Source of the DNA: Candidatus Kerfeldbacteria bacterium
GTDB lineage: Bacteria; Patescibacteriota; Patescibacteriia; UBA10025; JAHIVO01
Length of the DNA: 64,000 nt
Direction: 5' to 3'
Assembly: GCA_047946875.1 (NCBI GenBank)
Contig: CP181398.1
Location: 969,041 to 1,033,040 of the forward strand
Shown here: positions 32,797 through 62,940 of the stretch, piece by piece
Layout: every line of letters starts with the position of its first letter
Position numbering within the stretch: the stretch's first letter is position 1
Made by a program: the position numbers and the translations under genes
Notes under the pieces: generated by a model
Databases searched by the model: none
What the model saw: only the letters and a program-made list of their open reading frames with translations
What the model was told of the DNA's origin: nothing

Positions 32797-33411
32797 TTAA
32801 TATTTGCATATAATAAATGCACAGAGCCAAGCAGAAAAACCACAAATGCCAGTAACACATGGGTACCAAAATGGTCCAGCATAAATGCAACCAATGGCAC
32901 CACCTCCACATTTATCAAGAACACATAGCCAGAAGCAGCTCCACCAAGACGAAGCTGCCGCTTTGGACATAATGCCTTTCTTTGACACATTATAAGTCGT
33001 GCCTACAGCAGTCTCACTATCAATAACATTTACTTCAGTTACATCAACCGATACTACTTCATTCTCTTCAATGAAACGTAACAGATAAAAACTACTATCA
33101 TTTTTTCCCTTAAATGGAATAATAATACCAGTAATACCTTCCGACTGACCACCAATTGCCTGATCATAGTTCACCTCATAACCACGATCACTTAATTCTT
33201 TCACAGCAACTATTGTCATTTCATTTGCTTTTACATACGCTATTGCGTCACTAAGCTGTTGTTCATCTAACAACCCATCATATTGTGAAGCAATAGGATT
33301 ATGTTGAGATGAATCATTGTCAGAACAACCAACAGTCATTAGTATCATAGAAAACATCGCCAGTGTCATGAAACCCATGGCGAACTTTTTAAAAACAGTA
33401 TTTGTCAGCAT
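32797..33411 (-). CDS. Lipoprotein with a C-terminal Gly/Cys/Trp-rich hydrophobic tail
   Basis: Signal peptide with lipobox (LMTVGC). C-terminal CGGGAIGCIYAGPFWYPCVTGICGFSAWLCAFIICKY. Confidence 0.5.
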   Translation of the reverse strand: MLTNTVFKKFAMGFMTLAMFSMILMTVGCSDNDSSQHNPIASQYDGLLDEQQLSDAIAYVKANEMTIVAVKELSDRGYEVNYDQAIGGQSEGITGIIIPFKGKNDSSFYLLRFIEENEVVSVDVTEVNVIDSETAVGTTYNVSKKGIMSKAAASSWWSCFWLCVLDKCGGGAIGCIYAGPFWYPCVTGICGFSAWLCAFIICKY

Positions 33412-33716
33412 GACAATACTCCTTAAATAAAAACATTTACCGTAGGCTCTTTATTTTTAAATATCATTCGTAAGAAGCGACCCACGTTATCTTCTTACTA
33501 ATTAAAAATAAATTTTAGCACCACACCTCTCTTTCTTCACTTTTTTAATGATCATTTTTGGTTTTATTTGTTGCTATCCACAGATTTTTCCGACGGCAAT
33601 TTCATGCGACGGCTCATTTTATCGTTGAAATAATATTTTGTTTCATTGATTTTTTTTAGCTTCACTTAATTACCTAGCCGTCTCTTTTTTATTTCTCAAT
33701 GTTCATTTCTACCTTT

Positions 33717-33745
33717 ATTTTAGCACAAAAAACGACCTTAGTAAA
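33717..33745 (-). promoter_or_regulatory. Copy 3 of the recurrent promoter cassette (minus strand: TTTACT - 17 nt - TGcTAAAAT)
   Basis: The plus strand reads ...atttctacctttattttagcacaaaaaacgaccttagtaaa. The reverse complement gives TTTACTaaggtcgttttttgtgcTAAAAT. It lies ~60 nt after the stop of the last metalloprotease gene and ~300 nt upstream of the 33411 start. Confidence 0.45.
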
Positions 33746-33805
33746 TTATACAAGGATAAAATAAATTACTTTTTTTATTAAATACTAGTTAGTAATAATA
33801 AAATA

Positions 33806-35953
33806 TTATAAGTTTTCTTGATACCATGCTTCATATTCCCCTTGCGTCCAATCAGTTCCAACTGGAGAATATGCGGCTGGAGGATCACATGGATCCGGTC
33901 CACCAAGAAAAAGAGACGCAACAAGATAGGTAAGGTCCGCAACCGACACTCGTGTATCCAAATCAACATTTGCAGCTGCATAAGGGTAAGGCGCTATTCC
34001 TCCTGTAAATAAATACGAAACAAGGAACGTAACATCAGCAATATTAATACTCCCACTATTATCTACATCACCGCACATGATGTTATTATTGACGATCATG
34101 TTGGTAAAAATAAAACTGGAATTATTAGGCGCGCCGTAAGGAGCACCTGCATTATCATATACGCGTGCCTGTACAAATTCCAAACCATTCAAGACCTCGC
34201 GAGAATCAAAAACTCCCTCATAGGGTACGATAGCATCCGTACCAAGAGAAACTAATCCGCTACGAAAAAAATCCACTTTTTCTATTCCTGAAAGATCGGA
34301 TGCAGAAACAACCAGTGGAACCAAACCAGATACTTCTGTTCCCATTTTCGGAGATGTGAATAACGCTGTTGGTGGATCAAAATCTGTTTTACCGATAATA
34401 ACAGTAACATTCATATACGAATTTTCCGGATTTCCGGAATCTTCAAAAACTTCATCAACTTGAACGACAGTACCGGTAACCGGATCAGTAAATGAAAACA
34501 GTTCCGGTAAAATCTCCGGGCACCCAGAATCACCAGGAGTTATATCCAAAAGCCAGGAACGTGCCGGATCAACCAACCCGTACTCACGACCATTAACATG
34601 TAACAAAGCACCGCCAAGTATGGAACAACTCAAATCACTGTCCGTGCCGTACGGCTGGCGAAATTCGAGATACAAATAATCTCCGGGAGTCCGTGGAATC
34701 TTTAATGCTTTAATTTCCTGTGCGCCGCCTGTCACCGGTGTTTCAATCGGCTTTAAAGTGAAAGTGCCGCTCTCTGATGCTTCATGAATTTGATAGGTAT
34801 CATTAAACCAACCCATATATTCTTTGTGTACTGAATTGAAATGGCCCGAAAATCCTCTTCCCATAATATCGTACCAATCTCCATATTCTGAAAGTTCACA
34901 ATTTTCATAATCAAGTGTAATAATTTCTTCACCACAATCAATAAAACTTGCATGACGAGCTCCGAGCCCATGTCCAAGCTCATGGCCCGGAACGTAATAA
35001 CTCGTATACGTCATATACACCGAACGGACCACCTGTATTGAAAATGGCGTAACACCGTCATCTGTAGGATGAGGGGATTTACCGATAGTTGATAAACCCG
35101 CCCACGCACAACTGGATTCTACGGGCACAACAATCATTACGTGGTCATACTGCGTAAAATCAACATCAGGATCCACTAAATTTATTGTTGCATCATATAT
35201 CTCATTAAAACCACATGTATGATTAATCGGAAGTGTGGACCATCCTTCCGCCAGACCCAAGAGTGTCTCACCACTCAGATTCATCTGATTGAATGACACT
35301 TCCTGATAATATTCATTTATTGATCCAAAAACTACCTGATCTATCTCTGCGTTCGTAATGCTTGGCAGTTCTGTATCTTGAAAATTCGCCGGTATTACCA
35401 AAACCCGCTGTTCACCAAGCACGGAATCTCGTTCACCGGATTTTAATTGAGCTATGCCGGTTTTACTCTCTTCATTTTCATCTATAATATTCTCAATCAA
35501 AAGCGTGTTGTTCCCCACATCATACCCAGTAACCAACATAGTGGTTCCGGATATTAATCCTGGTTCTGATTCACTTGTAAAAAAGAGTTGATATTTAACG
35601 CCGTCATCAGTATGTAAGAAAAATTCACTCCACGCTGTATTCTTATCAAAATCATCATAAGCAACTTCCTGTAATATTCCTTGTAATGTGATAATACTAC
35701 CACTACATTCTTCCATATCTACAGTTTTGTATGACTGGTCAATTATATCTAAACGTATATTGCTGCTAGCCCACTGATCCGTATTTACAGAAGGACACCT
35801 GCTGATTTCTTGATTCACGTGATCAATCCGACTGCTGAACATTCCAATAATTATTCCCGCCGCCAAACACAAAGATGTAGCCATCATAACTGCAATAATA
35901 ATTTTTTCTTCAATGGAAACTTTAGTTTTTACCTGCATTTGGATTAATTCCAT
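33806..35953 (-). CDS. Membrane-anchored reprolysin-like zinc metalloprotease (metzincin) with a C-terminal dockerin-like domain; paralogue g of the array
   Basis: N-terminal signal anchor QVKTKVSIEEKIIIAVMMATSLCLAAGIIIGMF. Zinc motif VPGHELGHGLGARHAS (HExxHxxGxxH). C-terminal CGDVDNSGSINIADVTFLVSYLF...ANVDLDTRVSVADLTYLVASLF is a duplicated dockerin-type Ca-binding repeat. Confidence 0.75.
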   Translation of the reverse strand: MELIQMQVKTKVSIEEKIIIAVMMATSLCLAAGIIIGMFSSRIDHVNQEISRCPSVNTDQWASSNIRLDIIDQSYKTVDMEECSGSIITLQGILQEVAYDDFDKNTAWSEFFLHTDDGVKYQLFFTSESEPGLISGTTMLVTGYDVGNNTLLIENIIDENEESKTGIAQLKSGERDSVLGEQRVLVIPANFQDTELPSITNAEIDQVVFGSINEYYQEVSFNQMNLSGETLLGLAEGWSTLPINHTCGFNEIYDATINLVDPDVDFTQYDHVMIVVPVESSCAWAGLSTIGKSPHPTDDGVTPFSIQVVRSVYMTYTSYYVPGHELGHGLGARHASFIDCGEEIITLDYENCELSEYGDWYDIMGRGFSGHFNSVHKEYMGWFNDTYQIHEASESGTFTLKPIETPVTGGAQEIKALKIPRTPGDYLYLEFRQPYGTDSDLSCSILGGALLHVNGREYGLVDPARSWLLDITPGDSGCPEILPELFSFTDPVTGTVVQVDEVFEDSGNPENSYMNVTVIIGKTDFDPPTALFTSPKMGTEVSGLVPLVVSASDLSGIEKVDFFRSGLVSLGTDAIVPYEGVFDSREVLNGLEFVQARVYDNAGAPYGAPNNSSFIFTNMIVNNNIMCGDVDNSGSINIADVTFLVSYLFTGGIAPYPYAAANVDLDTRVSVADLTYLVASLFLGGPDPCDPPAAYSPVGTDWTQGEYEAWYQENL

Positions 35954-36011
35954 AAATTTTTATCATCATACAAATAAAATTCTGCTTAATATCAATCTAC
36001 AGACTATTTTA

Positions 36012-38339
36012 TTATCTATACACTGGTCTTGGACAACATGGATGACCATCATTCGCAGGATTATCACAATTAACAGCACATTCACAAGAACGATTTACAG
36101 TATCACATTGATAATCACTAGGACAGCCACAATCAGTACAATCTGTTTCAGTTAGTTCACCGTCAATACATATCTTCCCAGTATCACCCGGTATATTACA
36201 TTCTCCTGGTAAAACACCATCTTCACAAATTTGTTCACAATAACCTTCATCAGTACATACATCTCCCGCGTCTACACAGAGTCCTTCATGATCTCCACAG
36301 GCAAAACAATGAGCCCAAGAATCAAAACCACACGTACGATCACCACAGCTACTTACAGCTGGCACACTTTCACAATAAGCATCAGCTGTACCGGCACCAA
36401 CGCAAGTATCTACGGTACACCAATCATCATCAGCACAATCTTTATTGACTTTACAAAGAAATTCTACTTCTACGGTCAGTTTTCTTTCTTCCATTGGTAC
36501 ACTATCATCGGAAACAGATAGAGGTGTAATTACTACGCCTGTTTCTAAATCGGTCCATGAGTTATTAAGTTGAAGGGCTACATTTTTACTTGCACCATGA
36601 TACCAACCTCCACAACCACCATAAGGAGGATCGCAAAGATCAAGAAGAAATGATTTATGGCTATATGGATAATCAATTCCCATTGAACGTTCTGTGGTAT
36701 GAATAAGTGCACCTGTAAGAAGATTAGAACTAGTAACTGAGGTTTCATCAAAACCAATTGGCTGGCGATACTCAACATATATATAATGATTATCCCCACG
36801 GGGTATTTTTAGTGCTTTGAGTTTTAATCTGTCAGCAATCTCAATTGGATATAGTTCATATGTTCCACTATTAGTAATAGTCTGAATTTCAATAACGTTC
36901 ATCCAGCCCGTTGCATCTTTATGAAGCGCGTTGTAATGAGACATTGTGACATAACCCATTGCATCGTGGAGATCTAAGGCTTCGTCAATACCACCAGCAA
37001 AAACACATTCACTTAATGGCGTTGTAAATGTATTACAGCGAAGAACCGCTGCATGTTTATTACCAAGATTGTGTCCAAGTTCATGACCTAAATAATGAGC
37101 ACTTTTTCTAAAATCATAATCATAACCAACCGCACCTTCTGCAACAGGAAAATCAAGCGCCCTAACTGTTACACGGCCTATTTGATACTCATCACCAGGC
37201 TCTGTACCAGGTATAGTAATAGCATCTTGATCAACTGACCCAATACTTGCCATTCCAGCCCAAGTACATGAATCTCCATTACTCTTTCGCCATGGTGCAA
37301 TAATTACCAAATGATCATATTCCGTAAAGTCAATACTATCATCAGCATCATAGGCTTCTTGCATGGACTGCTCATAAAAAGATATATAAACTTCACATGA
37401 TACATCCAAATCAATCTTGTACCTAGAATTTGGATTTGTGGGATAAATATCAGCTGAGGCTGTAGGGTTTGCTATTCCAGCAAAGTGCAGTTGATCATAT
37501 GAGTTTTCTACATAGTAATCATTAATATTGTCCATTACTTTTCCAATAGTTTCATGTTCAGGGCTTGTTTCAGAGGTATTAGCAAAATCAACTTTCAAGA
37601 TTATTGTTTTACGCTCACCAGTAACTGACTTGTCGGATTTCTCTAATGTTACCCTATAACCTGAGAGGTTCTCTGAAGACTTTTCAGCTAGGTTATTTGC
37701 TCCGTCAAATAATAGCTTGTCATCCAATACATAACCAACAATTTGAGCGATGGTTCTTGAGGTTGTAATATACTTTGGTGATACTGATGGAAAGAGGCTT
37801 ATTGAACTGTCATCATCTGTAACAAAGGTATATGAGTCTTTACTGATGCCTTCTTCAAAATTATCAAAAGTATTTATATAAACCTTTCCGTCATACGTAG
37901 TTAATATTTCTGAACAATTAGTAGCATAGGTATTTACTTTATCAAGCTCTGCTTTGGTAAATACTGATTCTAAAGCTGCAGATGAATCCATCTGCATTAG
38001 ATCTGATAAAAGCTGTTTTCTGATAATAATAAGGGATTGGATTGTACTGACATTCTTCCCTGCTGCCAAGGCTGCTCTGAGATCAGTATTTACTTTGTTC
38101 ATTGAGCTTATCATCTCCTTAATATCAGTACTGTCTACTACTGGTTTTTCTAATATCAATGGTTTTGACTCAGCACACGTTACTTTTACTATCCTTTGTT
38201 CAACAGTTGTAATTGGTGAACTAAAAAACCCTGCAATAATCCCTGTTGCCAAACACAAAGACGCTCCCATCATTACGGCAACAACAATTTTTTCTTCAAT
38301 AGAAACTTTGGTTTTTACCTGTTGTTGATCTAATTTCAT
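36012..38339 (-). CDS. Membrane-anchored reprolysin-like zinc metalloprotease with a C-terminal ~150-aa Cys-rich module; paralogue f
   Basis: Signal anchor QVKTKVSIEEKIVVAVMMGASLCLATGIIAGFF. Zinc motif YLGHELGHNLGNKHAAVLRCN (HExxHxxGxxH). The C-terminal module CADDDWCTVDTC...GDRTCGFDSWAHCFACGDHEGLC...PCCPRPVYR has about 30 Cys. Confidence 0.8.
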   Translation of the reverse strand: MKLDQQQVKTKVSIEEKIVVAVMMGASLCLATGIIAGFFSSPITTVEQRIVKVTCAESKPLILEKPVVDSTDIKEMISSMNKVNTDLRAALAAGKNVSTIQSLIIIRKQLLSDLMQMDSSAALESVFTKAELDKVNTYATNCSEILTTYDGKVYINTFDNFEEGISKDSYTFVTDDDSSISLFPSVSPKYITTSRTIAQIVGYVLDDKLLFDGANNLAEKSSENLSGYRVTLEKSDKSVTGERKTIILKVDFANTSETSPEHETIGKVMDNINDYYVENSYDQLHFAGIANPTASADIYPTNPNSRYKIDLDVSCEVYISFYEQSMQEAYDADDSIDFTEYDHLVIIAPWRKSNGDSCTWAGMASIGSVDQDAITIPGTEPGDEYQIGRVTVRALDFPVAEGAVGYDYDFRKSAHYLGHELGHNLGNKHAAVLRCNTFTTPLSECVFAGGIDEALDLHDAMGYVTMSHYNALHKDATGWMNVIEIQTITNSGTYELYPIEIADRLKLKALKIPRGDNHYIYVEYRQPIGFDETSVTSSNLLTGALIHTTERSMGIDYPYSHKSFLLDLCDPPYGGCGGWYHGASKNVALQLNNSWTDLETGVVITPLSVSDDSVPMEERKLTVEVEFLCKVNKDCADDDWCTVDTCVGAGTADAYCESVPAVSSCGDRTCGFDSWAHCFACGDHEGLCVDAGDVCTDEGYCEQICEDGVLPGECNIPGDTGKICIDGELTETDCTDCGCPSDYQCDTVNRSCECAVNCDNPANDGHPCCPRPVYR
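37815..38150. repeat. About 330-bp near-identical direct repeat (copy 1) shared with 47395..47730
   Basis: Compared by eye, the stretch from ggtatatgagtctttactgatgcc through tggtttttctaatatcaa matches the second copy with only 1-3 mismatches. It encodes the identical ~100-aa N-proximal segment (MISSMNKVNTDLRAALAAGKNVSTIQSLIIIRKQLLSDLMQMDSSAALESVFTKAELDKVNTYATNCSEILTTYDGKVYINTFDNF) of paralogues f and c. Confidence 0.7.
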
Positions 38340-38366
38340 ATTTCTTTTCTTTTCTTCATATGAAAA

Positions 38367-41300
38367 TTAATCCATTCCTCCAGCTGGATCTGTACCTGCA
38401 CAAGCTGGATCAGGTTTACGTGGATTATAGTTACTACACTCTGGATCATCTGGTTGTGGTGTTGGTGCTTCACACTGACCACTAGCACATGAGCCCATGC
38501 ACTGTAGTGGTACTCCAACACATTCATCCCATCCCGGATGATATTGATCACTACAATAATATTCCATATATTGAGTTGAATTTACACATGTTATTTCATT
38601 ATATTCATCTTTATCATAACATTTACCAAATTCTGTAGGATTAAATCCTCCACAATCTCCTCCATCACACCAATTATCAGAATCATAACAAACACAGTTA
38701 GAACCAGCACAACCAATTGCACATGTCCAAAGTTCTGCTGGTTCACAGCCACTTGTACCACATTGATAGCCTTGGACATTACCTGCATTACATGTTTGAG
38801 AATGGTAACCAGCTAAATCAGTACAAGATGTTACAACGCTTTGTAAATCTGGGTCACGATAATCAATCCAACCGTCACAATCATCATCAAGATAGTTTAG
38901 GCACACTTCGTTATCGCTGCAATCCCAATCGTGATAAAAGTAAATATCATCATTATCGTTACCATTCACCCCATATGCATTCCACACTATTCGATTTTCA
39001 GAAATTGCCATATATCCCAAAGATATATATGGATCTGATGATCCACTCATTAATTCAGTAAGTCCTGCTGCTGTATTATCAAGATCATATAAATACAGTG
39101 GATTATCATCATTAAAATAAGAAGCTTTTAACAATATAATCTTTGAACCATCAATATCTAGTGCTTCTATATGGCCCTCGGGAATGCTATAAATCAATTG
39201 TTGGCCTGCTGTAGGGTTTGACAAATCATATAGATAAAGTTTGTTATAATTCTTCCAAATGATAGTATTGCCAGAAATTCTAGCAAACGCACCATCAGAT
39301 TCGGCTATCAGCTGCTTACCGGCAGCGGGATTGGATAGGTCAAACATATATATATACGGATTTTCGTCTCCCCAATCAACCCACACTATCTTACCTTCAT
39401 CGATATCTAATAAGTGTCTCTCTGCTTCAGTTCCAGGGAGTTGTTGGACTCCAGCAGCGGGATTGGATAGGTCGTAGTGGTAAATAAAATAGACTTCCCA
39501 CAAACCAGTTTCCGACCAAATGATATTATCACCTGATATTTCAAGTACATCAAGCTCATACAAATTAGAATCAGCTATCTGTTGAACACCAGCTCCTGGA
39601 TTAGATAGATTATAATAGTAAATAAAACCAGCTGTAGTCCACACTACATTATCACCCGAAATAGATAAATTAGTAACATACCAATCGGCGGATAAAGCAA
39701 TACTTTGAATTCCCTCTTGCGGATTATCAAAATCAAAGGTGTCTATATAGGTATCATCATAATTATATCTAGCCCACACTGCACGACTACCCGATATATC
39801 TGGCTTGATGTTATGTTCCCAGTCCCCATCAACTGTGTAGCCATATCCATGCGTTAATTTTGCTGGACCACGAGATGCAAGCTGTATCGGCGTATCATAT
39901 ACAAATCCCCCTATTGCAGAATTGACTGATAAACGAATTGTGTAGTCACCAATTGGCACATTCAATATATTCCATTCACCAAGAATGCCATCTATTACTG
40001 GTGTTGTGACTAGACCTCCTATTGCTACCCAATCATCTTTGCCTGTTTCGCTATATAAAAGCTGATATGATGTTTGAGGAAAACCAACTGTGGCAGCATG
40101 TGCTGTTCCCGTGATAGTTATTGTATCCAGCAGCAATTCCTGCGGATACAGATATGTATACAAAGCTGGACTAGTAATTTCAGCAACCTCAGTGACAGGG
40201 AATGGATATAATCCATTTACTTCAGCAGCGGCCTGAATTTCTGCAAAATGTGGTGTGCCATTAATAATAATTCCGTCATCATCGTCAAGTACTATAAGGT
40301 CAAATAATGCATAAGGGATATTAGGTGAATTTGCAAGTACGGTCGACATTACCAAACTCTCTGCTATATCTACACCAAGCATTTGACGTAACTGCCATGC
40401 AAAACCAACCCATGCCTGTCCCAGCCTATGAACTTCATCAACTCCGCCCTGGGGGTATTGATAATCATTTTCAGCAGTACGAATGTAAGTATCTTCTCCG
40501 AAAAAACCTTCACCAATAATCGGCTGATCAGTTGCATAAGTAGCAAAAATATCTGCCCACCCTTCTGATAAACCAATTCCTGCGTTAGTATCTGGTATGC
40601 CACCGGCCATATGGTCAATAAAATGACCGTATTCATGATATAGTATTGTATCATACGCACTATATATACAGCTTTGACCTAGCCATTGATCATATCCTGC
40701 GCGATAAAAACCTATTTCCTGGTCATCGTCGTTGTATGCAAAATATGCATTACATAATGTACTGCAACAACCAGACGTTCTATTTACTAACGCCCGTAAA
40801 GGAATATCTATTCCCGTCAATGGCACTGGCAAATGTTCCTGTGCCCAATCATGTATATATGTCGTGTGGTAATAGGCATTCACCTGCGACGTTAAAGACT
40901 CGTTATTACCATCTGGATTAAATGGTAGGTCAATTGATACACCGGGATCAGCCGACTCATCAAATTCAATGTTTTCTGCGCCACTCAAGGAATACACAGC
41001 AGCCCATTGACCAAATAATTGTGCCTGTACGTTTGTTGGACTCGTTTCAGTCGGGAATATAAAGCTACCATCGTCATTGGTAAACTGCTCACTCCCTGAT
41101 GTTGTTGAAACGGTTAAATCATCGAGTTCAAAATTCGTCAGATCGTCTAACGTCACTAATGGATCAAATAAAACGCCGCGGCCATGAACAGAACCCTGGA
41201 TAGTGGCGTACAGACGCTTATCACGGACTCGGGCAGCGCCAGTGTGTTTATCTACGAATACTGTTTCAACTGCTTCTTCATACTGTACTTTTTGCAACTT

Positions 41301-42224: not shown

Positions 42225-42271
42225 ATATTTATTATTGGATAAATTAGATATTTATTTAGTAAGTATATGTA

Positions 42272-45598: not shown

Positions 45599-45669
45599 GT
45601 TTTTATCATTAAATGTATTAGATGATTTATTTTGTTGAGCCATATTTAATATATATTAATAAATATTTT

Positions 45670-47919: not shown

Positions 47920-47990
47920 AGATTTATTATTATACGATTTTTTTAGTTGAATGGGCATTAGTACAAAATATTATGAACGGATAGTATATT

Positions 47991-50900
47991 TTATCTATGC
48001 ACTGGCGTTGAACAACATGCATGATTTGGATAGTTTGCACAATTAACAGAACATTCGCAATAATAATCTCCTTGGCCATTATCCCAACAGGAATACCCGC
48101 CACTACATCCGCATACTCGGCAATCCGTATCAATTAGTTGGCCATCTTCGCATAACAGAGCGCCATTACCCACTCCATTACATGCTCCGGCGGGAGTACT
48201 TCCACAATCTGAATAACAATAGTTATCAAGACATGTATTACCTCCTACACACGATCCATTATAATCTCCACATACGGAACAATGTTTCCATGTATCCCAA
48301 CCGCATTCATAATCACCACATTCACTTGCTACAGGAGCGTTTGTGCAATATGAATCAACCCCAGTTCCAACACAAATATCATTCGTGCATAAATTACTAT
48401 CATAACAATCTTCATTAACACTACACGTTATAACCGTAAGCGTCATTGATACTGTGTTGAACTTCTCTGGATTTGCTACTTCCCTCACACCAAAGGTGAG
48501 ATCATAACTGCCAACCTGTTCTATAGTAGGTGTCCACATAAATACTCCATTGGCAGAAAGAAGGTTAGCTCCAGCTGGCAGATTGTCCACATAATATTCT
48601 ATCGCATCACCATCAAAATCCATGCCTTTCAAAAGAAGATTAAAGGAAGAACCAGCAATTACTTCTCGATCATCGATAGCACGGATAACTGGATCGTTAT
48701 TGATATATGTCCAATAAATATCCCAATTAGACCCGCCAGCTCGATTATCCATCCAAACAACTTTATCTCCTGATATTGCTGGATTTGTTTGTCTGTCTGT
48801 ATCAAAAGTCAACTGTACTCCACTTAAAGTGGGATTAGCTAAATCATAGAAATAAATATCATCATTGCCACTTCGTGTGTCCATAAATACAATATAATCT
48901 CCATCAATCGAAGGTTGTTGTTGATCTGCTGGATGATCAAATACTCTTTCCATTGTCTGACTAGTAATATTATAGATAAACAGATTATAATTATATGTAT
49001 CCCATACTATATTACCATCCGAAAAATCAAGTTCTCTAAGCCAAGTAGCCTTGCTAACAGCCAACTGTGCCCCAAGCTCTGGCTTATCAAGTTGGTAATA
49101 ATAAATATCATCATCATCTAGAAAATCACGCGGCGTAGAAAAAAACACAATTGTATCACCATCCATACTTGCATCATATGACTGTATTGAAGAATCATCA
49201 GTTAACTGTTGTATACCTAAACCCGGATTAATAATATCAAACAAATATATTTCTTTCGGACCTGTCCCCTCATCATGAAATACGATTTTGTTATTCGCCA
49301 TATCCATTTTAGAATTACAACACCCAATAAGTCCGGTAGCAGCTAACTGCTCTCCTGCAACCGAATTATTAAGATCATAGTAATATATTTCTTTTTTAGT
49401 ATAATCAAGCCAGACGATATAATTTTGATCTACAATAGGATACCTCTGAAAATCTGAATCAAATGTAATTCTTTGTTCTCCGGCCCCAGGATTATTCAAA
49501 TCATAATAATAAATATCATAACCATTACGCTCATCTTGCCAGACGATTATATCACCACTAATTTGTGGTCTATTTTGACTACCTAAATCCGTCGTAAGCT
49601 GAATAGGCGGAATTATACCAATGCTAACTGTTTGTGTATCAATAAAATAACCCACCGATGTGCTCACTATAAGCTTCAGAGTATAAACACCTAGTTGTAA
49701 ATTATGTACATCCCACTCACCAATCACTCCGTTATCAACATCTGTAAAACCCTCTATAATCTGTGTCCAAGTATCTGGATTTGTACCTTCCCCATAATAT
49801 AATTTATAATCATCTAGCTCTGCCACAATTCCCAGTGCATTTGCATTACCCATAACTGAAACAAAGTTCTCGCCAGCCAAGAAAAGTTCTGACAAATATA
49901 TTGTCTCAACTGGTTGTGTAATCAACGCTACAGTATCAAGATGGAATGGATATAAATTATGATTTTCAGCTGCATTAATGATAGCGCCTAGATGTGGTGT
50001 GCCATTTCCCAAGTTAGCATCATTATCATCAATAATAAGTAAATCAAGCACAGCACTAGGAATATCAGATGAATTAGCTAATATAGTTGGTAATACAATA
50101 TCTTCGGCTGTTTCCGCGCCAAGTGCTCGCCTAAGATCCCAAGCTAAACCAACCCATGCTTGTCCTAGATCATGCTCATCAACACCCTCGGGATTTTCAG
50201 GATACTGGTAATCATTATCCGCTGTTCGTATATGTTCACCCATTGCCCAGTAATTTTCTCCAATTAATGGTTGGCCAGTAGCAAATGTTGAGAAAATATC
50301 AGCCCATCCTTCAGATAAACCTTTATTAGTAATGCCCCCAAGTTTATGATCCACAAAATGACCATACTCATGATAAATTATTGTGTCATAAGCAGGATTT
50401 AAACAAATCCCGTCGCCAGAGAGATAAAATTCAATATGGAAAAAATAGCGATCATATGATGCATTACATATATAATCTGGATCAGGGTTATTTACATGCA
50501 ACCGAACTGGATAATCAAGCCCAAAAAAAATTTCATTAATAACAGACACTTGGCTGCCCAATTCTGACTCTATCCAGTCATGAATAAAAGAACCATGATA
50601 GTAAGCATTTACCTGAACTGTAGAATGTTCATCATTACCCGTGGGATTCAAATGTATTATCTCATCAATACTTTCTGTCGCATTGTCATTTTCATAATAT
50701 ACCCATGGTTCGCTCCAAGTTCCACTAAAAAGATGTTCTCCTCTCATAGCAGCTGTAATACCAATTGGTGTAGTGCTAACATCAAGTGAGAAATCGCCTG
50801 ATTCATCAGTGTAAGCTACATCATTATCATCAGACCAAACTTTCATATTTTTTAATGGTGCTTCGGTCAAACTATCTCCTGTTGTCCTTGGATCAAATTC

Positions 50901-51989
50901 TACAAAACGTCCCGTTACATTGCCTTGTATCTGAGCAAAGATAAGGCCATTTTCCCGGAACACTTCACCGTTATCACGGTCTACTATTGCGATATCCGTA
51001 GAACCTTTAAAGGCATAAATATTAACTCTACGCCAAGCATTATCAATGTATCTAACTGATGATTCAACTATTGGTGTTTCATAATTACTATCATCAAGCG
51101 TGAGTGCTCCAACTATCGAAGCTTTATCTGTACTATCATCAATTCCCAGTACTTCTGTTGCTCGTTGTTCTAGTATTCTTTCTAACTGAGGCGTTGCTGT
51201 AACAAGTGACAATTCTGGATAAACATTACTTGACGCGTATTGGATGACACTTTCGGTGTCAGTCATTTTAATAGCGAAATGAACATAGGTGTCTTCAACC
51301 GGTAAACCGTCTTTCATTTGTACGAAGTCAACAAAGGCTGTAGCTGCTCTACTTTCTGTAGCTGGGATTATGACACTGTATGTTTCTTCAAAATTATTGA
51401 CTGATAGACTTCCAATTAAGTCAGAACTTAATTGGGACTGTACTGCATCAACAATAGCTTGTTTCTCTGTAATCTTAGTGGTCGCAATTAGTTCAGTTCC
51501 ACTCTTTCCGGCTAATAGTGCAGGCGGCTGCTGTTTGTTAAATTCACTTGTATTCCATTGATCAATGACCTCCTCATAATATGCCTGCTCTTTCGGATCA
51601 TATTCCGACTGGATAGCACCAAAAAAGACATCCTTCACACTGTCGTCAGCTCTTAGTGCTTCAATGCTTGAATATGGAATTGTTGCGTACAAAGCAACCT
51701 CTGATGATTGATCGGCAATTATTCCACCGCTTTTTTCAATAATACTGATAAGAGAGGTGGTATCGACATCAGTAACTAAGAGTATCATTGCATCCCTGTT
51801 TTGATCTACGGCAACTAAGGTATCTTCTGGTGGTGGTTGAATTGCTTCTATATCCTGATCAAGCTTTGAAAAAAGCAGCAATCCAAAAGCAGCACCAACA
51901 CATAATACCGCGATCATGCCTATTCCAAGCATTATCTTAGTCGCGTTGATTTGTCGTACCTTAACTTTAGTATCTTGTTGGTTTTCCAT
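47991..51989 (-). CDS. Membrane-anchored thermolysin-like zinc metalloprotease with PD40-like beta-propeller repeats and a C-terminal Cys-rich module; paralogue b
   Basis: The start was trimmed to MENQQDTKVKVRQINATKI (the ORF runs to 52007). IIYHEYGHFVDHKLGG plus GLSEGWADIFS. Repeats DIYYYDLNNPGAGEQ. The C-terminal Cys module ends ACCSTPVHR. Confidence 0.75.
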   Translation of the reverse strand: MENQQDTKVKVRQINATKIMLGIGMIAVLCVGAAFGLLLFSKLDQDIEAIQPPPEDTLVAVDQNRDAMILLVTDVDTTSLISIIEKSGGIIADQSSEVALYATIPYSSIEALRADDSVKDVFFGAIQSEYDPKEQAYYEEVIDQWNTSEFNKQQPPALLAGKSGTELIATTKITEKQAIVDAVQSQLSSDLIGSLSVNNFEETYSVIIPATESRAATAFVDFVQMKDGLPVEDTYVHFAIKMTDTESVIQYASSNVYPELSLVTATPQLERILEQRATEVLGIDDSTDKASIVGALTLDDSNYETPIVESSVRYIDNAWRRVNIYAFKGSTDIAIVDRDNGEVFRENGLIFAQIQGNVTGRFVEFDPRTTGDSLTEAPLKNMKVWSDDNDVAYTDESGDFSLDVSTTPIGITAAMRGEHLFSGTWSEPWVYYENDNATESIDEIIHLNPTGNDEHSTVQVNAYYHGSFIHDWIESELGSQVSVINEIFFGLDYPVRLHVNNPDPDYICNASYDRYFFHIEFYLSGDGICLNPAYDTIIYHEYGHFVDHKLGGITNKGLSEGWADIFSTFATGQPLIGENYWAMGEHIRTADNDYQYPENPEGVDEHDLGQAWVGLAWDLRRALGAETAEDIVLPTILANSSDIPSAVLDLLIIDDNDANLGNGTPHLGAIINAAENHNLYPFHLDTVALITQPVETIYLSELFLAGENFVSVMGNANALGIVAELDDYKLYYGEGTNPDTWTQIIEGFTDVDNGVIGEWDVHNLQLGVYTLKLIVSTSVGYFIDTQTVSIGIIPPIQLTTDLGSQNRPQISGDIIVWQDERNGYDIYYYDLNNPGAGEQRITFDSDFQRYPIVDQNYIVWLDYTKKEIYYYDLNNSVAGEQLAATGLIGCCNSKMDMANNKIVFHDEGTGPKEIYLFDIINPGLGIQQLTDDSSIQSYDASMDGDTIVFFSTPRDFLDDDDIYYYQLDKPELGAQLAVSKATWLRELDFSDGNIVWDTYNYNLFIYNITSQTMERVFDHPADQQQPSIDGDYIVFMDTRSGNDDIYFYDLANPTLSGVQLTFDTDRQTNPAISGDKVVWMDNRAGGSNWDIYWTYINNDPVIRAIDDREVIAGSSFNLLLKGMDFDGDAIEYYVDNLPAGANLLSANGVFMWTPTIEQVGSYDLTFGVREVANPEKFNTVSMTLTVITCSVNEDCYDSNLCTNDICVGTGVDSYCTNAPVASECGDYECGWDTWKHCSVCGDYNGSCVGGNTCLDNYCYSDCGSTPAGACNGVGNGALLCEDGQLIDTDCRVCGCSGGYSCWDNGQGDYYCECSVNCANYPNHACCSTPVHR

Positions 51990-52044
51990 ATATTTATTAT
52001 TAGACATATTAGATATTTATTTAGTAAATATGTGAAATTTATTT

Positions 52045-54399
52045 TTATCTATACACTGGTGTTGGACAACATGGATGATCATCATTAGCGGGATTATCAC
52101 AATTAACATTACATTCACAATAACGATTTTCTGGGTCCGTGAAGTTACATTGATAACCGCTTCTACACCCACAATCTAAACAATCTGTTTCAACTAATTC
52201 ACCATCAATACATATTTTTCCAGTATCGCCCACTATATTACATTCTCCTGGCAGAATACCACCTTCACAGATTTGTTCACAATAACCTTCATCAGTACAT
52301 ACGTCTCCATCATCAACACATAGTCCTTCATTATCTCCACAAGCAAAACAATGTGCCCATGAATCAAAACCACAAGTACGATCACCGCAACCACTTACAG
52401 CTGGAGTACTTTCACAGTGTGCATCGGGTGTCCCAGCGTCAACACAAGTATCTACTGTACACCAATCATCATCAGCACAATCTCTGTTAACTTTACAAAG
52501 AAATTCTACTTCTACTGTTAGTTTTCTTTCTTCCATTGGTACACTATCATCAGAAACAGATAGAGGCGTAATTACTACACCTGTTTCTAGATCAGTCCAT
52601 GAGTTATTAAGCTGAAGTGCTGTATTTTTGCATACACCACCCCAAGGTGAACAATTTCCGCAACCACCATAAGGAGGTCCACAAAGATCAAGAAGGAATG
52701 ATTTATTTCTATGAAAATCAATTCCAGCTGAACGCTCTGTGGTATGAATAAGTGCGCCAGTCATAAGATTAGACCAATTAACTGCAAACTCATCAAAACC
52801 AATTGGTTGACGATACTCAATGTATATATAGTGATCATCTCCTCGTGGTATTTTTATGGCTTTAAGTTTTAATCTATCAGAAATTTCAATAGGATATAAT
52901 TCATATGTTCCACTATTGGTAATAGTTTGAATTTCAATACCATTCATCCATCCTGTTACATCTTTATGGAGAGCATTATAGTGAGACATTGAATAATAAC
53001 CCATAATATCATGAGCATCTTTATATTCATCACTACTATTAAAAACACATTCGCTCAATGGAGTTGTAAGTGCGTTACAGCGAAGAAGTGCTGCATGTTT
53101 ACTACCAAGATTATGTCCGAATTCATGTCCAACAATCCTTGAAGAATTATTAAGATCAAATTCATAATTTGGATATTCCGGATCTTCATAAGGAGGGAAG
53201 TATTCTGAAATAGCTGTCATATAACTTATACTATACTCGTCACCAGACTCCGTACCAGGCACGGTAATAGCATCTTGATCATATGATCCAAGGGTTGCCG
53301 ATCCAAGCCACCCACACGAATCTCCGTCACTATGTTGCCATGGTGCTATTGCTACCACATGATCGTATTCCGTAAAATCAATACCATTAGCATCATAAGC
53401 AACTTGCATAGATTGTTCAAAAAAAGTTTCCCATATTTGATCCTCTTCCCCATGATCACATGTTTTATTCATACTAATCTTATACCGTGAATTTGGATTA
53501 ATAGGATAAATATCAGCTGAGGCTGTAGGGTTTGCTATACCTGCAAAGTGTAGTTGATTATATGAATTTTCTACATAGTAATCATCAACATTATCCATAA
53601 CTTTTCCGATAGTTTCATGCTCCGGGCTTGATTCAGAAGTATTGGCAAAATCAACTTTTAATATTATGGTCTTGCGCTCACCAAGGTATGCTCTACTAGA
53701 CTTTTCTAGAGTTACTCTATAGCCTGAAAGACTATTTGCAGACTTTTCAGCAAGGTTGTTTGCTCCATCAAATAATAGTTTATTATCAATAGTATAGCCA
53801 ACTATTTGAGCTACTGTTCTGGAAGTTGTTATTTCTGGTGGTGGTGTTGAAGGGAATAAACTTATTCTATTATTATTTGATACAAAGGTATATAGTTCTT
53901 TACTTATGCCTTCTTCAAAACCATCAAAAGTAGTTATATAGACTTTTCCATCATAAGTATTTAATATTTCTGTACAATTATTAGAGTAGGTATTTACTTT
54001 ATCTAGCTCTGCTTTGGTAAATACTGAATCCAAAGCTGCGGATGAATCTACCTGCATCAGATCTGATAAAAGCTGTTTTCTTTCAATAATGAGTTCTTGT
54101 ATTAAACTGACATTCTTGCCTACTGAAAGTGCTTGTCTGAGATCAATATTTAATTTACCCATAGAGTTTGTCATCTCTTCAATGTCAGTACTATCTGCTA
54201 CTAGTTTTTCTAATACCAGTGGCCTTGATTCAATACAAGTTACTTTTACTATCTTTTGTTCAACAAATGATATTGGTGTACTAAAAAACCCAACAACAAT
54301 CCCTGCTGCCAAACACAAAGACGCTCCCATCATCAGAGCAACGCCAATCTTTTCTTCAATTGAAACTTTAGTTTTTACTTGTACTTCGTTTGATTCCAT
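52045..54399 (-). CDS. Membrane-anchored reprolysin-like zinc metalloprotease with a C-terminal Cys-rich module; paralogue a (first gene of the array)
   Basis: MESNEVQVKTKVSIEEKIGVALMMGASLCLAAGIVVGFF. RIVGHEFGHNLGSKHAALLRCN (HExxHxxGxxH). The C-terminal module ends PCCPTPVYR. Confidence 0.8.
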   Translation of the reverse strand: MESNEVQVKTKVSIEEKIGVALMMGASLCLAAGIVVGFFSTPISFVEQKIVKVTCIESRPLVLEKLVADSTDIEEMTNSMGKLNIDLRQALSVGKNVSLIQELIIERKQLLSDLMQVDSSAALDSVFTKAELDKVNTYSNNCTEILNTYDGKVYITTFDGFEEGISKELYTFVSNNNRISLFPSTPPPEITTSRTVAQIVGYTIDNKLLFDGANNLAEKSANSLSGYRVTLEKSSRAYLGERKTIILKVDFANTSESSPEHETIGKVMDNVDDYYVENSYNQLHFAGIANPTASADIYPINPNSRYKISMNKTCDHGEEDQIWETFFEQSMQVAYDANGIDFTEYDHVVAIAPWQHSDGDSCGWLGSATLGSYDQDAITVPGTESGDEYSISYMTAISEYFPPYEDPEYPNYEFDLNNSSRIVGHEFGHNLGSKHAALLRCNALTTPLSECVFNSSDEYKDAHDIMGYYSMSHYNALHKDVTGWMNGIEIQTITNSGTYELYPIEISDRLKLKAIKIPRGDDHYIYIEYRQPIGFDEFAVNWSNLMTGALIHTTERSAGIDFHRNKSFLLDLCGPPYGGCGNCSPWGGVCKNTALQLNNSWTDLETGVVITPLSVSDDSVPMEERKLTVEVEFLCKVNRDCADDDWCTVDTCVDAGTPDAHCESTPAVSGCGDRTCGFDSWAHCFACGDNEGLCVDDGDVCTDEGYCEQICEGGILPGECNIVGDTGKICIDGELVETDCLDCGCRSGYQCNFTDPENRYCECNVNCDNPANDDHPCCPTPVYR

Positions 54400-54541
54400 A
54401 AGCCTATATTTCTATATATTTAAAATATTAAATTTAATATTAAAAAGCGGAGGAAATTCAAATAATATATTTCACCCCCACCCAACTATTAATTACCAAA
54501 CGATCTATTATTATTTTTTTGTTGAGTTCATTTCTACCCTA

Positions 54542-54570
54542 ACTATGGCACAAAAAATCCCTTTAGTCAA
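54542..54570 (-). promoter_or_regulatory. Copy 2 of the recurrent promoter cassette: TTGACT - 17 nt - TGcCATAGT (minus strand), 140 nt upstream of the first metalloprotease gene
   Basis: The plus strand reads tttctaccctaactatggcacaaaaaatccctttagtcaa. The reverse complement gives TTGACTaaagggattttttgtgcCATAGTtagggtagaaa. It is the only promoter-like element between the subtilase stop (54737) and the 54399 start. Confidence 0.55.
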
Positions 54571-54736
54571 TCTCTTTGAAATTAATAAACTAATAAATTA
54601 AAATATTATGAATTGCCAATTAATATTATAAAAACTATTTACCTATATACCAAAACACCACGGATATATATCCGTGGTGAAATGGTTACCCCTAAATTTA
54701 ATGATTTAAGGAATCATATTATATTCTATGAAAAGA

Positions 54737-62922: not shown

Positions 62923-62940
62923 CTTAATTCTCCCATTTTA

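Follow-up and report, generated by a model that had tools for sequence, protein, structure and literature searches.

A tandem array of predicted surface zinc metallopeptidases with exchangeable terminal modules in a Candidatus Kerfeldbacteria genome

Background

Clustered genes for paralogous secreted proteases have already been described. In the spl operon of S. aureus, six tandem, co-directional genes encode the paralogous secreted serine proteases SplA-F, and the cluster is variable between strains (PMC5061998, PMC8765433). Among zinc metallopeptidases, family M11 is placed in the metzincin subclan MA(M), possesses a Met-turn and consists of proenzymes (PMC7518263). The third zinc ligand of thuringilysins is an Asp, and igalysins (M64, with the IgAse of Thomasclavelia ramosa) display the motif HExxHxxxGxxD together with a Met-turn, the IgAse also bearing Cys-rich metal-binding modules (PMC12237041).

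Here we analyse a stretch of 64,000 nt (the window) from Candidatus Kerfeldbacteria (GCA_047946875.1, contig CP181398.1, 969,041-1,033,040, forward strand), a member of the CPR / Patescibacteria with a tiny genome. A preliminary description, made from the sequence alone, had proposed that it harbours an array of seven paralogous, membrane-anchored zinc metalloproteases.

Results

Gene content of the array

Seven co-directional minus-strand ORFs lie back to back between 33806 and 54399, and their coordinates match those of the preliminary description exactly:

52045-54399, minus strand: gene A, type I, 784 aa; class-1 anchor, ~190-aa N-terminal domain, M11/M6-like metzincin domain (HEFGHNLGSKH at aa 425), 150-aa Cys-rich tail
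47991-52007, minus strand: gene B, type II, 1338 aa, probable start 51989; class-2 anchor, thermolysin-type propeptide, M36/M4-like catalytic domain (HEYGHFVDH...GLSEGWADIF), beta-propeller (TIGR04275), He_PIG Ig domain, Cys-rich tail
45670-47958, minus strand: gene C, type I, 762 aa, probable start 47919; HELGHNFGNRH
42272-45643, minus strand: gene D, type III, 1123 aa, probable start 45598; class-3 anchor, N-terminal region, putative catalytic domain interrupted by an NHL propeller, HESAHVFFAEDEY at aa 740, SLMK at ~aa 793, beta-sandwich-like region, Cys-rich tail
38367-42224, minus strand: gene E, type II, 1285 aa; HEYGHFIDH...GLSEGWADIF, propeller, Cys-rich tail of its own
36012-38339, minus strand: gene F, type I, 775 aa; HELGHNLGNKH, Cys-rich tail
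33806-35953, minus strand: gene G, divergent type I, 715 aa; HELGHGLGARH, Big_7 Ig domain, dockerin-like tail

The gaps measure 26-58 nt when the longest ORFs are taken. Alignments of paralogues imply later starts in B (Met7, 51989), C (Met14, 47919; the NCBI call for this gene has 749 aa) and D (Met16, 45598), with which the spacing of 27-71 nt given earlier is recovered. All seven proteins possess exactly one N-terminal hydrophobic segment (Kyte-Doolittle score >1.6) and exactly one HExxH, every zinc-binding motif quoted before being present; by chance an HExxH is expected in any single array protein at 1-3%. The claim that the seven genes are paralogous holds only in part, since three catalytic families, not one, occur in the array. 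F is closely similar to A (75% aa, 79% nt identity), E shares 35% identity with B across ~1100 aa, and the aa identity of G to A, C and F is about 29%.

Six of the seven proteins could be assigned to a family and are credible as zinc metallopeptidases. Five of them (A, C, F, B and E) stay under the curated Pfam/NCBIfam cut-offs for every named peptidase family. The dN/dS values among A, C and F range from 0.25 to 0.34, and these genes are therefore not pseudogenes; the catalytic core is under purifying selection, with dN/dS reaching 0.84 in diversifying loops beside the active site.

An eighth protease gene adjoins the array:

54737-58132, minus strand: S8 subtilase, 1131 aa; FG-GAP repeats, D-type N-terminal anchor, short Cys-rich tail sub-module

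The subtilase reported immediately upstream is thus confirmed (Pfam Peptidase_S8 4.8e-52, FG-GAP_3 8e-16). Its N-terminus shows 29% identity to that of D, and its tail is similar to those of P0079 and L084_690, proteins from related loci elsewhere, and to a tail sub-module of A, F and D. Nearby genes encode further candidates for the cell surface, namely lipoproteins, an M23 peptidase, a protein with LTD/PKD domains and a T2SSG-like ORF. The supposed pilin-like gene reaches only a sub-threshold T2SSG match (19.5 vs 21 bits).

Type I: metzincins between M11 and M6

The extended zinc motif of metzincins, HExxHxxG/NxxH/D, is present in A, C, F and G in the four HExxHxxGxxH forms that had been read from the sequence before, and these proteins are predicted to adopt the metzincin catalytic fold. 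Across 26 sequences of the type I family, which comprises 8626 representative clusters, the H, E, G, H and H of the motif are invariant, as is the Met of D-x-M-G located 41 residues past the first His. The closest solved fold is that of InhA2 (M6, 4YU5/4YU6; PDB title 'immune inhibitor A2 peptidase zymogen'), likewise a secreted zymogen in which an N-terminal propeptide is followed by a metzincin domain and then a beta-domain. Its sequence identity to type I is only ~15%, however, and InhA lacks an N-terminal signal-anchor, has neither a Cys-rich nor a dockerin tail and is not encoded in a tandem array.

Profile comparisons point to M11. Gene G exceeds the cut-off of Peptidase_M11 (Pfam PF05548; 27.8 bits against 21); A, C and F gave no PF05548 match in the Pfam search and are homologous to G by blastp (8e-51 to 2e-57). 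The same profile is matched in 15 of the 26 close homologues (best E 8e-24), and P0004 and P0079 match it as well. Membership in M6 (thuringilysins) was rejected: the NCBIfam M6 domain TIGR03296 is hit at E 3e-6 to 4e-10, yet with 27-40 bits against a cut-off of 110.8, and the third zinc ligand is His instead of Asp; strong similarity to M6 is confined to the fold. Equally rejected was M12B (reprolysin/adamalysin), in which all matches to Reprolysin_2/3/4/5 fall under the Pfam gathering cut-off and PDB matches cover the zinc helix only; the expected assignment of A, C, F and G to Reprolysin families consequently failed (Reprolysin_5 20.3, 14.5 and 25.3 bits vs 27). In profile searches the type I family resembles M11, in its fold M6 (InhA2). 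Its HExxHxxGxxH is shared with gametolysin (M11, PF05548) and with OgpA-type bacterial proteins annotated as M11. Characterised gametolysin is a cell-wall lysin of Chlamydomonas, from which substrate information is not transferable to the type I proteins.

In addition to the Ig domain (Pfam Big_7, 1.7e-8), G has a tail in which two D-x-D/N-x-x-x-x-x-x-x-D-like loops are visible and which scores just under the Dockerin_1 cut-off (PF00404; 21.3 vs 22.9 bits); Dockerin_1 is matched in 5 of the 26 homologues (up to 6.4e-9). A duplicated dockerin-like Ca-loop module, as in cellulosome display, ends both G and the gene upstream of P0079. Unlike in cellulosomes, no cohesin partner is seen within the window, and the remaining tails are Cys-rich, with a fold lacking a known match.

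Type II: M36/M4-like gluzincins

B and E share the string HEYGHF[VI]DH...GLSEGWADIF...VDExHxLGQAW, i.e. the gluzincin arrangement of HExxH, a Glu ligand ~20 residues on and a downstream catalytic His. Across 17 type II sequences there is no variation at H, E, H and E and hardly any at D and H; these positions align to Mep residues. The type II profile matches the fungalysin Mep structures 7qp3 and 4k90 (6e-6) at HEYxH...EGWGD...H, as well as pro-thermolysin (6.9e-8), in which the propeptide is covered (5a3y residues 31-231, domain E 4.4e-6). Pfam M36 (PF02128) is matched in 7 of the 17 homologues, and FTP and PepSY in one each; B and E themselves do not reach the Pfam cut-offs of M36 (PF02128, cut-off 23.3; E 13.6 bits, B no match) or M4 (PF01447/PF02868). 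Of the thermolysin-like character proposed earlier, HExxH...EGWAD and the thermolysin-type propeptide stand, but the proteins are nearer to M36 than to M4, with the Pfam cut-off missed. We classify B and E as divergent gluzincins of M36/M4-like type that carry both a thermolysin-type propeptide and a beta-propeller. The propeller repeats, described before as PD40/TolB-like, match TIGR04275 (147.8 bits in B) and TolB only weakly. EGWAD corresponds to EGWGD of fungalysins, and the downstream His and an FTP/PepSY-type propeptide are shared with the fungalysin/thermolysin group, whereas classical M36/M4 enzymes lack the signal-anchor, the extra domain behind it, the TIGR04275 beta-propeller, the Ig domains and the Cys-rich tail of B and E.

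Type III: a putative zincin with an inserted propeller

The NHL repeats that had been noticed in D form a propeller:

43484-44356, minus strand: NHL propeller of D with six blades (aa ~430-720), inserted after ...ILNWSYG and ahead of the HExxH segment

It consists of six RFDSGSGGTxFG units at aa 457-717 (PF01436, 3.8e-22, 77.6 bits). The homologue L084_690 from another metagenome is collinear with D (blastp 2e-30 and 1e-21; 32% identity overall) and shares HExxHVFxxxDxY, RVIAAGG, S[IL]MK and DWHxMAQIGWGD, but is devoid of the propeller, which is therefore an insertion just ahead of the putative active-site helix. The non-NHL parts of D and L084_690 have no match among Pfam, NCBIfam, PDB or hhalign profiles beyond the five-residue motif, and the single-sequence structure model of D is unusable (pLDDT 35). 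Its motif has a Phe at the Gly/Asn position of metzincins. The earlier reading of D as a zinc metalloprotease thus keeps the support of an HExxH conserved in one homologue and gains none from profile or fold; we regard D as a putative zincin of an unclassified family. Reminiscent of igalysins and other Asp-ligand metzincins (snapalysins), D and L084_690 possess HExxH with an Asp six residues on, then x-Tyr, and their downstream S[IL]MK could be a Met-turn; the spacing is, however, off by one residue from that of igalysins, the Gly/Asn is missing and no sequence or profile similarity is detectable, so that the resemblance is a lead only.

Exchange of heads and tails

Several long stretches of high identity connect members of the array:

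37856-38136, minus strand: tract of gene conversion in F (281 nt), without a single mismatch to 47436-47716 in C
47436-47716, minus strand: partner tract in C, 281 nt
51882-52497, minus strand: duplicated boundary-spanning block, made up of the tail of A from aa 635 on, the spacer and the first 42 aa of B (head)
42117-42715, minus strand: partner block, made up of the tail of D from aa 977 on, the spacer and the first 36 aa of E (head)

The C/F tract stands in a background of 65-80% identity, and the two tail-spacer-head blocks share 81.8% nt identity over 616 nt. The Cys-rich tail of F has 85% nt identity to that of D; over its first 40 codons, G matches the A, C and F heads at 78-79% nt identity. 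Together, the identical tract, the duplicated block and the shared heads strongly support the notion of a mosaic, recombining array. Heads and tails thus swap independently of the catalytic cores.

Related arrays occur on two other metagenomic contigs. The same head and tail classes recur in other combinations in P0079/L083 and in L084, whose array includes a papain-like C1 protease that bears them as well; the divergent Cys-rich tail of C is of the type seen in L084_800 and P0090. Pattern scans of Pfam, PDB and JGI metagenomes revealed no recognisable relatives of the Cys-rich tail, which makes its proposed targeting role a guess. Elsewhere, type II homologues are solitary genes, and in 80 genomes no more than two type I genes were found together within ~20 kb, so the array is not a widely conserved operon.

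Anchors and propeptides

In all eight proteases a hydrophobic segment of ~23-30 residues follows a polar leader of 12-28 residues. The remaining exported proteins of the window bear a signal peptide of ordinary type or a lipobox, and the long-leader anchor is accordingly specific to the eight. The leaders of B, D, E and S8 carry a weak positive charge, whereas those of A, C, F and G are close to neutral, which leaves the N-in topology uncertain. Between anchor and catalytic domain, B and E contain a propeptide recognised by profile; the corresponding N-terminal region of S8, D and A/C/F gave no profile match and is presumed to be a prodomain. The single N-terminal hydrophobic anchor claimed for each enzyme is present, but the anchored state is probably confined to the zymogens.

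Transcription signals

A conserved promoter-like cassette occurs in three copies, and a terminator-like hairpin follows S8:

58170-58209, minus strand: copy 1, TTGACT-17-TATAGT with TG, then GGTAGAAA; 38 nt upstream of the S8 start
54531-54570, minus strand: copy 2, TTGACT-17-CATAGT with TG, then GGTAGAAA; gene A starts 132 nt downstream of it
33706-33750, minus strand: copy 3, TTTACT-17-TAAAAT, then GGTAGAAA
54656-54679, minus strand: terminator-like hairpin with a 10-bp stem (6 GC pairs) and T-run; 58 nt past the S8 stop

In the window the 29-nt cassette pattern has exactly two occurrences and the core TTTTTTGTGC-N9-GGTAGAAA three (0-0.1 expected for either). They are located before S8, before A and just past G only, with none in the array interior. 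Copy 3 begins 56 nt past the G stop and 295 nt upstream of a lipoprotein gene (32797-33411), and it appears to mark the downstream end of the array unit. The promoter-like site at 54542-54570, previously called strong, does exist and belongs to this recurring cassette, but by consensus score alone it is not strong (9/12 matches plus TG; 9-10/12 for the cassette in general). A scan of 51900-61000, which holds that site, gave 60 promoter-like sites against a shuffle mean of 42.3 (sd 7.1); that of the array (32500-52400) gave no enrichment over shuffles. None of the terminator-like sites detected is located in an internal array gap. These signals would fit a single operon of seven genes, with the S8 subtilase as a transcription unit apart under the same promoter-like cassette.

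Discussion

We consider it probable that the locus is an extracellular proteolytic arsenal, made by tandem duplication and recombination of interchangeable modules. The array would supply seven large precursors, i.e. four M11/M6-like metzincins, two M36/M4-like gluzincins and one putative NHL-propeller zincin, probably from one transcription unit starting at the promoter cassette, which would likewise drive S8 and the gene past the array. Each product would be inserted by the Sec machinery via its long-leader signal-anchor, with the N-terminus in the cell, and since a prodomain would sit between anchor and catalytic domain, the precursor would be a membrane-tethered zymogen from which removal of the propeptide would free the mature enzyme. 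The C-terminal modules (propeller, Ig, Cys-rich or dockerin-like tail) may then position the freed enzyme at the surface of the cell itself or of a host or substrate, and degradation of proteins there could provide peptides for a biosynthetically poor cell or serve an attack on a host envelope. In the course of evolution, gene conversion would homogenise heads and tails while catalytic cores and the loop adjacent to the active site diverge.

Two components of this model have a competitor that we judge improbable but of some weight. The seven genes might form several units, each transcribed from a weak AT-rich promoter within its own spacer, as in L084 with its per-gene promoter-plus-anchor cassette, where a 268-nt promoter-plus-head block is duplicated ahead of two adjacent genes with a hairpin and T-run between them. 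Promoter-like hexamers in or near some spacers (e.g. 47997-47970, 52120-52093) and the absence of a Shine-Dalgarno sequence ahead of all seven genes would agree with such a division, but spacers of just 26-71 nt hold no terminator-like site, promoter-like matches across the array do not exceed those in shuffles, and the conserved cassette is found at both ends of the array and not inside; we therefore prefer a single unit. With a comparable degree of doubt, D may not be a peptidase but an NHL-propeller binding protein (an adhesin or substrate-recruiting subunit) that carries the head and tail of the array, with HExxH as a relic or coincidence. This would accord with the unusable structure model, with the profile searches of D and its homologue, with the Phe/Tyr in place of the metzincin Gly/Asn, and with the failure of the D motif to match PROSITE PS00142, a pattern that is failed by the good metzincins F and G, too. 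On the other hand, HExxH arises in just 1.5% of shuffles of D, the motif, the downstream Asp-x-Tyr and S[IL]MK are kept at only 32% identity, and the type III gene neighbours proteases at both loci, all of which favours a putative zincin.

Regarding the arsenal as a whole, the enzymes could act on the cell's own envelope or secretome, for example by maturing, shedding or turning over its surface proteins, its pili or an S-layer, and not in feeding or host attack. InhA is a modulator of the Bacillus anthracis secretome, and the closest solved fold of type I is InhA2; moreover, the surface-protein genes nearby include a lipoprotein gene with the same promoter cassette. We nevertheless think this unlikely: with four catalytic classes among eight large proteases, loops that diversify and targeting tails that are swapped, the set is better suited to a range of external substrates than to fixed housekeeping. 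Far less probable still are catalytically dead pseudo-proteases serving as adhesins: large proteins of the cell surface that combine propellers, Ig domains and a Cys-rich tail often serve as adhesins, but here the zinc ligands, the catalytic Glu, the invariant Met of type I and the M36 Glu and His of type II are all kept, and purifying selection acts on the core.

More speculative, and in our view rather doubtful, is the idea that Kerfeldbacteria-like CPR possess a lineage-specific cassette system for the surface display of degradative enzymes. If so, gene conversion would transfer a small stock of interchangeable long-leader anchors (sometimes with their promoter) and of C-terminal tails, Cys-rich or dockerin-like, to catalytic domains from at least five unrelated families (M11/M6-like, M36-like, type III, S8 and C1), yielding a surface 'multi-protease' apparatus that could be re-assorted rapidly and would be used against a host cell, in attack or feeding. 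In that case, type III would represent a metallopeptidase family not classified before, and the active site of D would be gated by its NHL propeller.

The array had been put forward as not matching any described system, a statement that holds for its particular modular form only, because clustered secreted proteases are on record with the spl operon. Both consist of tandem co-directional genes for secreted proteases. The Spl proteins, however, are small and single-domain, belong to one catalytic family and have ordinary signal peptides, whereas the array proteins are multidomain, 700-1300 aa long, equipped with exchangeable heads and tails, and drawn from three metallopeptidase families, to which the wider system adds S8 (adjacent) and C1 (in L084). 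The locus is thus an unusually modular case of a known theme, the clustered secreted-protease arsenal.

Results

Genes of the array and their setting

The seven minus-strand open reading frames (ORFs) claimed in the preliminary description at 33806-54399 are present at exactly these positions, and are here termed genes A to G.

Genes of the array
52045-54399, minus strand: gene A, 784 aa
47991-52007, minus strand: gene B, 1338 aa
45670-47958, minus strand: gene C, 762 aa
42272-45643, minus strand: gene D, 1123 aa
38367-42224, minus strand: gene E, 1285 aa
36012-38339, minus strand: gene F, 775 aa
33806-35953, minus strand: gene G, 715 aa

Measured between the longest ORFs, the spacers from A to G are 26-58 nt; paralogue alignments favour later starts for B (Met7), C (Met14; 749 aa in the NCBI annotation) and D (Met16), and once these are adopted the gaps of 27-71 nt reported earlier are reproduced. 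All seven proteins contain exactly one HExxH motif and one N-terminal hydrophobic segment; when the proteins are shuffled individually, an HExxH arises by chance in 1-3% of the versions. Within the window, a long polar leader followed by a ~25-residue hydrophobic segment is confined to these proteins and the product of the upstream subtilase gene (S8; 54737-58132, minus strand); the remaining exported proteins carry ordinary signal peptides or lipoboxes. The array and S8 together account for ~24 kb of the ~1.3-Mb contig (~1.8%) and encode eight giant exported proteases.

A, C and F are identical to NCBI proteins ACNFW9_04955, _04945 and _04930 (MAG: Candidatus Kerfeldbacteria bacterium, 1,309,938-nt contig), from a member of the Patescibacteria/Parcubacteria group. 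The window is bacterial, as judged by its PolA, HolA, Ddl and SSB genes, has a GC content of ~36% and is coding almost entirely on the minus strand; GC within the array (0.36-0.41) lies slightly above that of the adjoining 2-kb windows (0.31-0.34). From a collection of 5.8 billion proteins A, C and F were retrieved, and B, D and E never, even with B/E as query.

Type I proteins (A, C, F, G)

Protein identity is 75% between A and F, 70% between C and F and 62% between A and C, and ~28-30% between G and the others. When 1.84 billion representatives were searched exhaustively with HMMER, a catalytic-region profile returned 8626 clusters at E <= 1e-3, of which 834 reached E <= 1e-30. Members of the family are present in CPR, Gammaproteobacteria, Chloroflexota, Actinomycetota, Myxococcota, Bdellovibrio and one Methanosarcinales MAG. 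Peptidase_M11 is matched by 15 of the 26 close homologues (best E 8e-24), among which Big_7 and dockerin domains are common, and G itself passes this Pfam model (27.8 bits, cut-off 21 bits). Against the NCBIfam M6 domain model, E-values lie between 3e-6 and 4e-10, at scores far under its cut-off. Residues 235-640 of A, modelled by AlphaFold on an alignment of 26 sequences, reached a pLDDT of 85.4 and a pTM of 0.88; all 26 sequences retain the three His, the Glu and a Met further downstream. The type I proteins are best described as predicted metzincins whose profile and motif are M11-like and whose fold is M6-like. The motif HExxHxxxxxH is common to M11 and M12; no M11 structure had been solved by the time of the 2020 OgpA paper (PMC7518263). 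A reprolysin identity was rejected, since the Pfam Reprolysin matches of A, C and F are all below threshold and similarity to PDB entries is restricted to the zinc helix; a PDB sequence search with A as query gave nothing meaningful.

Type II proteins (B, E)

B and E share 35% identity over ~1100 residues. A profile search yielded 19 homologues, among them Pfam M4+M36+FTP proteins and one annotated M36 peptidase. A 17-sequence profile of this family matches both the pro-thermolysin propeptide (5a3y residues 31-231, E 4e-6) and fungalysin Mep structures at HEYxH...EGWGD...vHxxG (6e-6), and seven of the 17 match Pfam M36; B and E themselves fall under the cut-off, and a PDB sequence search with E as query gave nothing meaningful. 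The analogy with thermolysin drawn earlier was right in kind; the nearer family is M36. The repeats of both proteins correspond to the TIGR04275 beta-propeller repeat (147.8 bits in B), and B has a He_PIG Ig domain besides; PD40/TolB propellers, to which they had been compared, were rejected because the TolB match is weak and the repeats fit TIGR04275.

Type III protein (D)

D contains six RFDSGSGGTxFG blades at residues 457-717 (Pfam NHL, 3.8e-22), outside which no match was found in Pfam, PDB or a word-index protein search. The list of type I matches led to the ENA contig L084, on which a 690-aa gene (L084_690) directly precedes the homologue P0090. Its product aligns to D in two blocks that flank the propeller (residues 22-451, E 2e-30; 726-963, E 1e-21), so that the two proteins are collinear, at 32% identity, after removal of the propeller. 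Conserved blocks include V-x-A-H-E-x-x-H-V-F-x-x-x-D-x-Y, RVIAAGG, S[IL]MK and DWHxMAQIGWGD. This comparison argues that D is a member of a genuine family in which HExxH is conserved, here based on two sequences, and that its propeller is an insertion ~20 residues ahead of the putative active-site helix.

Whether D is itself a peptidase has to be weighed on mixed evidence. Like Asp-ligand metzincins (compare PMC12237041), it has an equal His-to-Asp spacing, and S[IL]MK could be the Met-turn; unlike them, its motif lacks the Gly/Asn. No profile or fold support for D as a zincin was obtained: when D, alone or with its homologue, was compared by hhalign with the profiles of types I and II, the match was limited to the HExxH helix, a PDB sequence search with the HExxH region gave nothing meaningful, a single-sequence AlphaFold run on aa 240-935 was unusable (pLDDT 35), and a JGI metagenome pattern scan for type III found no relatives. 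On balance we regard D, with fair confidence, as probably a metallopeptidase.

Shared heads and tails

The N-terminal anchor modules (heads) fall into three classes, and the C-terminal modules (tails) are likewise shared among proteins whose catalytic parts (cores) differ.

Heads and tails of the array proteins and S8
Anchor class 1, ...KTKVSIEEKI..AVMMGASLCLAAGI...: A, C, F, G
Anchor class 2, MENQQDTxVKVRQINATKI...: B, E
Anchor class 3, ...TRLAVGITVGMIAAFFVGL...: D; more distantly S8
Tail, 150-aa module with 24 Cys: A, F, D (81-86% aa identity mutually) and B (about 47-50%)
Tail, variant of the 150-aa Cys module: C
Tail, own module: E
Tail, short sub-module: S8
Tail, dockerin-like: G

The Cys-rich tail has no relatives in Pfam, PDB or a JGI metagenome pattern scan. 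At the DNA level, the segment comprising the A tail, spacer and B head shares 81.8% identity over 616 nt with that comprising the D tail, spacer and E head, and the tails of F and D are 85% identical. The first 40 codons of G share 78-79% nt identity with A, C and F, compared with ~29% protein identity for its remainder. A tract of 281 nt is perfectly shared between F (37856-38136) and C (47436-47716), within surroundings that are 65-80% identical, and along the alignments of A, C and F dS varies between 0 and about 1.9. For these three genes dN/dS is 0.25-0.34 overall; between A and F it reaches up to 0.73-0.84 at residues 359-448, a region that includes a variable low-confidence loop before the active-site helix.

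Related arrays of differing composition occur on two other metagenomic contigs. On the JGI contig L083, a type I enzyme (P0079) combines a class-3 head with a short Cys tail; the gene upstream of it ends in a G-like dockerin tail, and 41 nt downstream lies another class-3 head. On L084, class-1-like heads are found on a papain-like C1 protease and on the type III homologue, and, taken together with ~80 nt of promoter-like sequence ahead of them, these heads match each other at 93% over 268 nt.

Duplicated block of L084
5340-5604 and 7879-8146: promoter-like TTTACA-17-TATACT and first ~61 codons (anchor)

The block precedes two adjacent protease genes that differ in catalytic class, with a hairpin and T-run between them, and C-type tails occur on the C1 protease and on P0090. 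The swapped combinations in the window, L083 and L084 argue that heads, cores and tails are independent, recombining modules that five or more catalytic families of this lineage have in common.

Transcription signals

The promoter site proposed earlier (TTGACT-17-CATAGT with TG) matches the consensus at 9 of 12 positions, and promoter-like matches in a scan of the array are not enriched relative to shuffles. The site is, in addition, part of a ~44-nt block repeated ahead of S8, whose core, TTTTTTGTGC-N9-GGTAGAAA, occurs in exactly three copies in 64 kb (0.1 expected).

Copies of the cassette core
Before S8
Before A
From 56 nt past the G stop, upstream of the lipoprotein gene 32797-33411

Behind S8 lies a GC-rich hairpin (10 bp) with a T-run. 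The array spacers contain none of the terminator-like sites listed, and there is no copy of the cassette in the interior of the array. Shine-Dalgarno-like sequences are absent before all seven genes, whose spacers are AT-rich throughout; AAGGAG precedes the gene that follows downstream (start 33411). These features fit three units with one promoter type, which we infer to be S8, A-G (~20.6 kb) and the lipoprotein gene.

The third cassette is followed by a ~295-nt leader of the lipoprotein gene (minus strand; leader region 33412-33750), which contains a weak hairpin with a T-run (33486-33469) and whose first bases, GGTAGAAATGAAC, equal the start of the gene A leader. A regulatory RNA in the leaders was rejected on folding z-scores of 0.10 and -1.0 (the latter, for the lipoprotein leader, not significant), and the sole match of an Rfam scan was a tRNA.

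Neighbouring genes

Secretome genes are abundant near the array. They include a 754-aa exported protein with three lamin-tail domains and PKD (27191-29455, minus strand) and an M23 peptidoglycan-hydrolase-type lipoprotein (31014-31745, minus strand), whose gene is overlapped over 182 nt by the ORF 30362-31195. The ORF 2980-8109 (minus strand; 1709 aa) has an N-terminal signal-like segment and no Pfam match even at E <= 1; its product is a large orphan and probably a surface protein. The ORF 58248-58775 (minus strand), preceded by a strong terminator-like hairpin (58808-58782), had been called pilin-like; its T2SSG match is sub-threshold (19.5 vs 21 bits) and it is without the canonical prepilin G/F-T-L-I-E cleavage motif.

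Two direct repeats were also found. One of 64 nt (62074-62137 and 62940-63003; 90.6% identical) is intergenic, lies upstream of two adjacent minus-strand genes and may be another shared regulatory cassette; the other, of 36 nt (31884-31919 and 32360-32395; 91.7% identical), adjoins the small membrane-protein ORFs 31939-32313 and 32385-32690. An HD-domain gene (L084 3133-3726; window 23579-24172; 65% nt identity) lies 2-10 kb from the protease array in both contigs, which hints that the two arrays are in related genomic neighbourhoods, with differing gene order.

Discussion

The genomes of CPR/Patescibacteria are tiny, and these bacteria are presumed to depend on host cells; to our knowledge, little has been established on how they acquire amino acids or act on the surfaces of their hosts. 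Six of the array proteins keep complete zinc-peptidase active-site signatures inside recognisable peptidase homology, and, judged from sequence, the array probably serves to degrade proteins outside the cell, whether to acquire peptides, to act on a host surface or both. M4/M36, M6 and S8 enzymes are produced as proenzymes. In B and E the region that separates the anchor from the catalytic domain is propeptide-like, by its profile match with the thermolysin propeptide; the corresponding regions of S8, D and A/C/F have no Pfam match and are presumed prodomains by position. M11/M12 enzymes, too, are proenzymes (PMC7518263), and entry 4YU5 is a zymogen. Because the related families are made in this way and such regions are present or presumed here, the anchored form is probably a tethered zymogen. 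Removal of the propeptide would free the enzyme, and the propeller, Ig, Cys-rich or dockerin tails might then set its site of action. A reliance on peptidases has been argued for CPR genomes without amino-acid biosynthesis (PMC6851277).

The share of the contig given to eight exported proteases points to proteolysis as a major component of lifestyle, and the array enzymes offer a set for substrate profiling. The head/tail pair, which recurs across catalytic classes and in no fewer than three metagenomic sources, may determine the way in which enzymes are displayed or targeted by these cells, and the unclassified type III HExxH family, with and without NHL propeller, is worth a structure. The array also illustrates clearly how gene conversion shapes a set of paralogues in a reduced genome.

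Since the type II homologues P0005 and P0012 are solitary genes, and type I genes in 80 genome loci occur in pairs at most and never beside type II, the array is not a widely conserved operon. Literature searches gave no description of a CPR genome with a mixed-family array whose heads and tails are shared and swapped, nor of the Cys-rich tail module, the type III family or its NHL-inserted member; on these weak negatives, all of them are apparently new. The enzyme families themselves (M11/M6-like, M36-like) are already known, as are tandem arrays of secreted-protease paralogues, and current views are thus not overturned: in its clustering of secreted proteases the array resembles the spl operon of S. 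aureus (PMC5061998).
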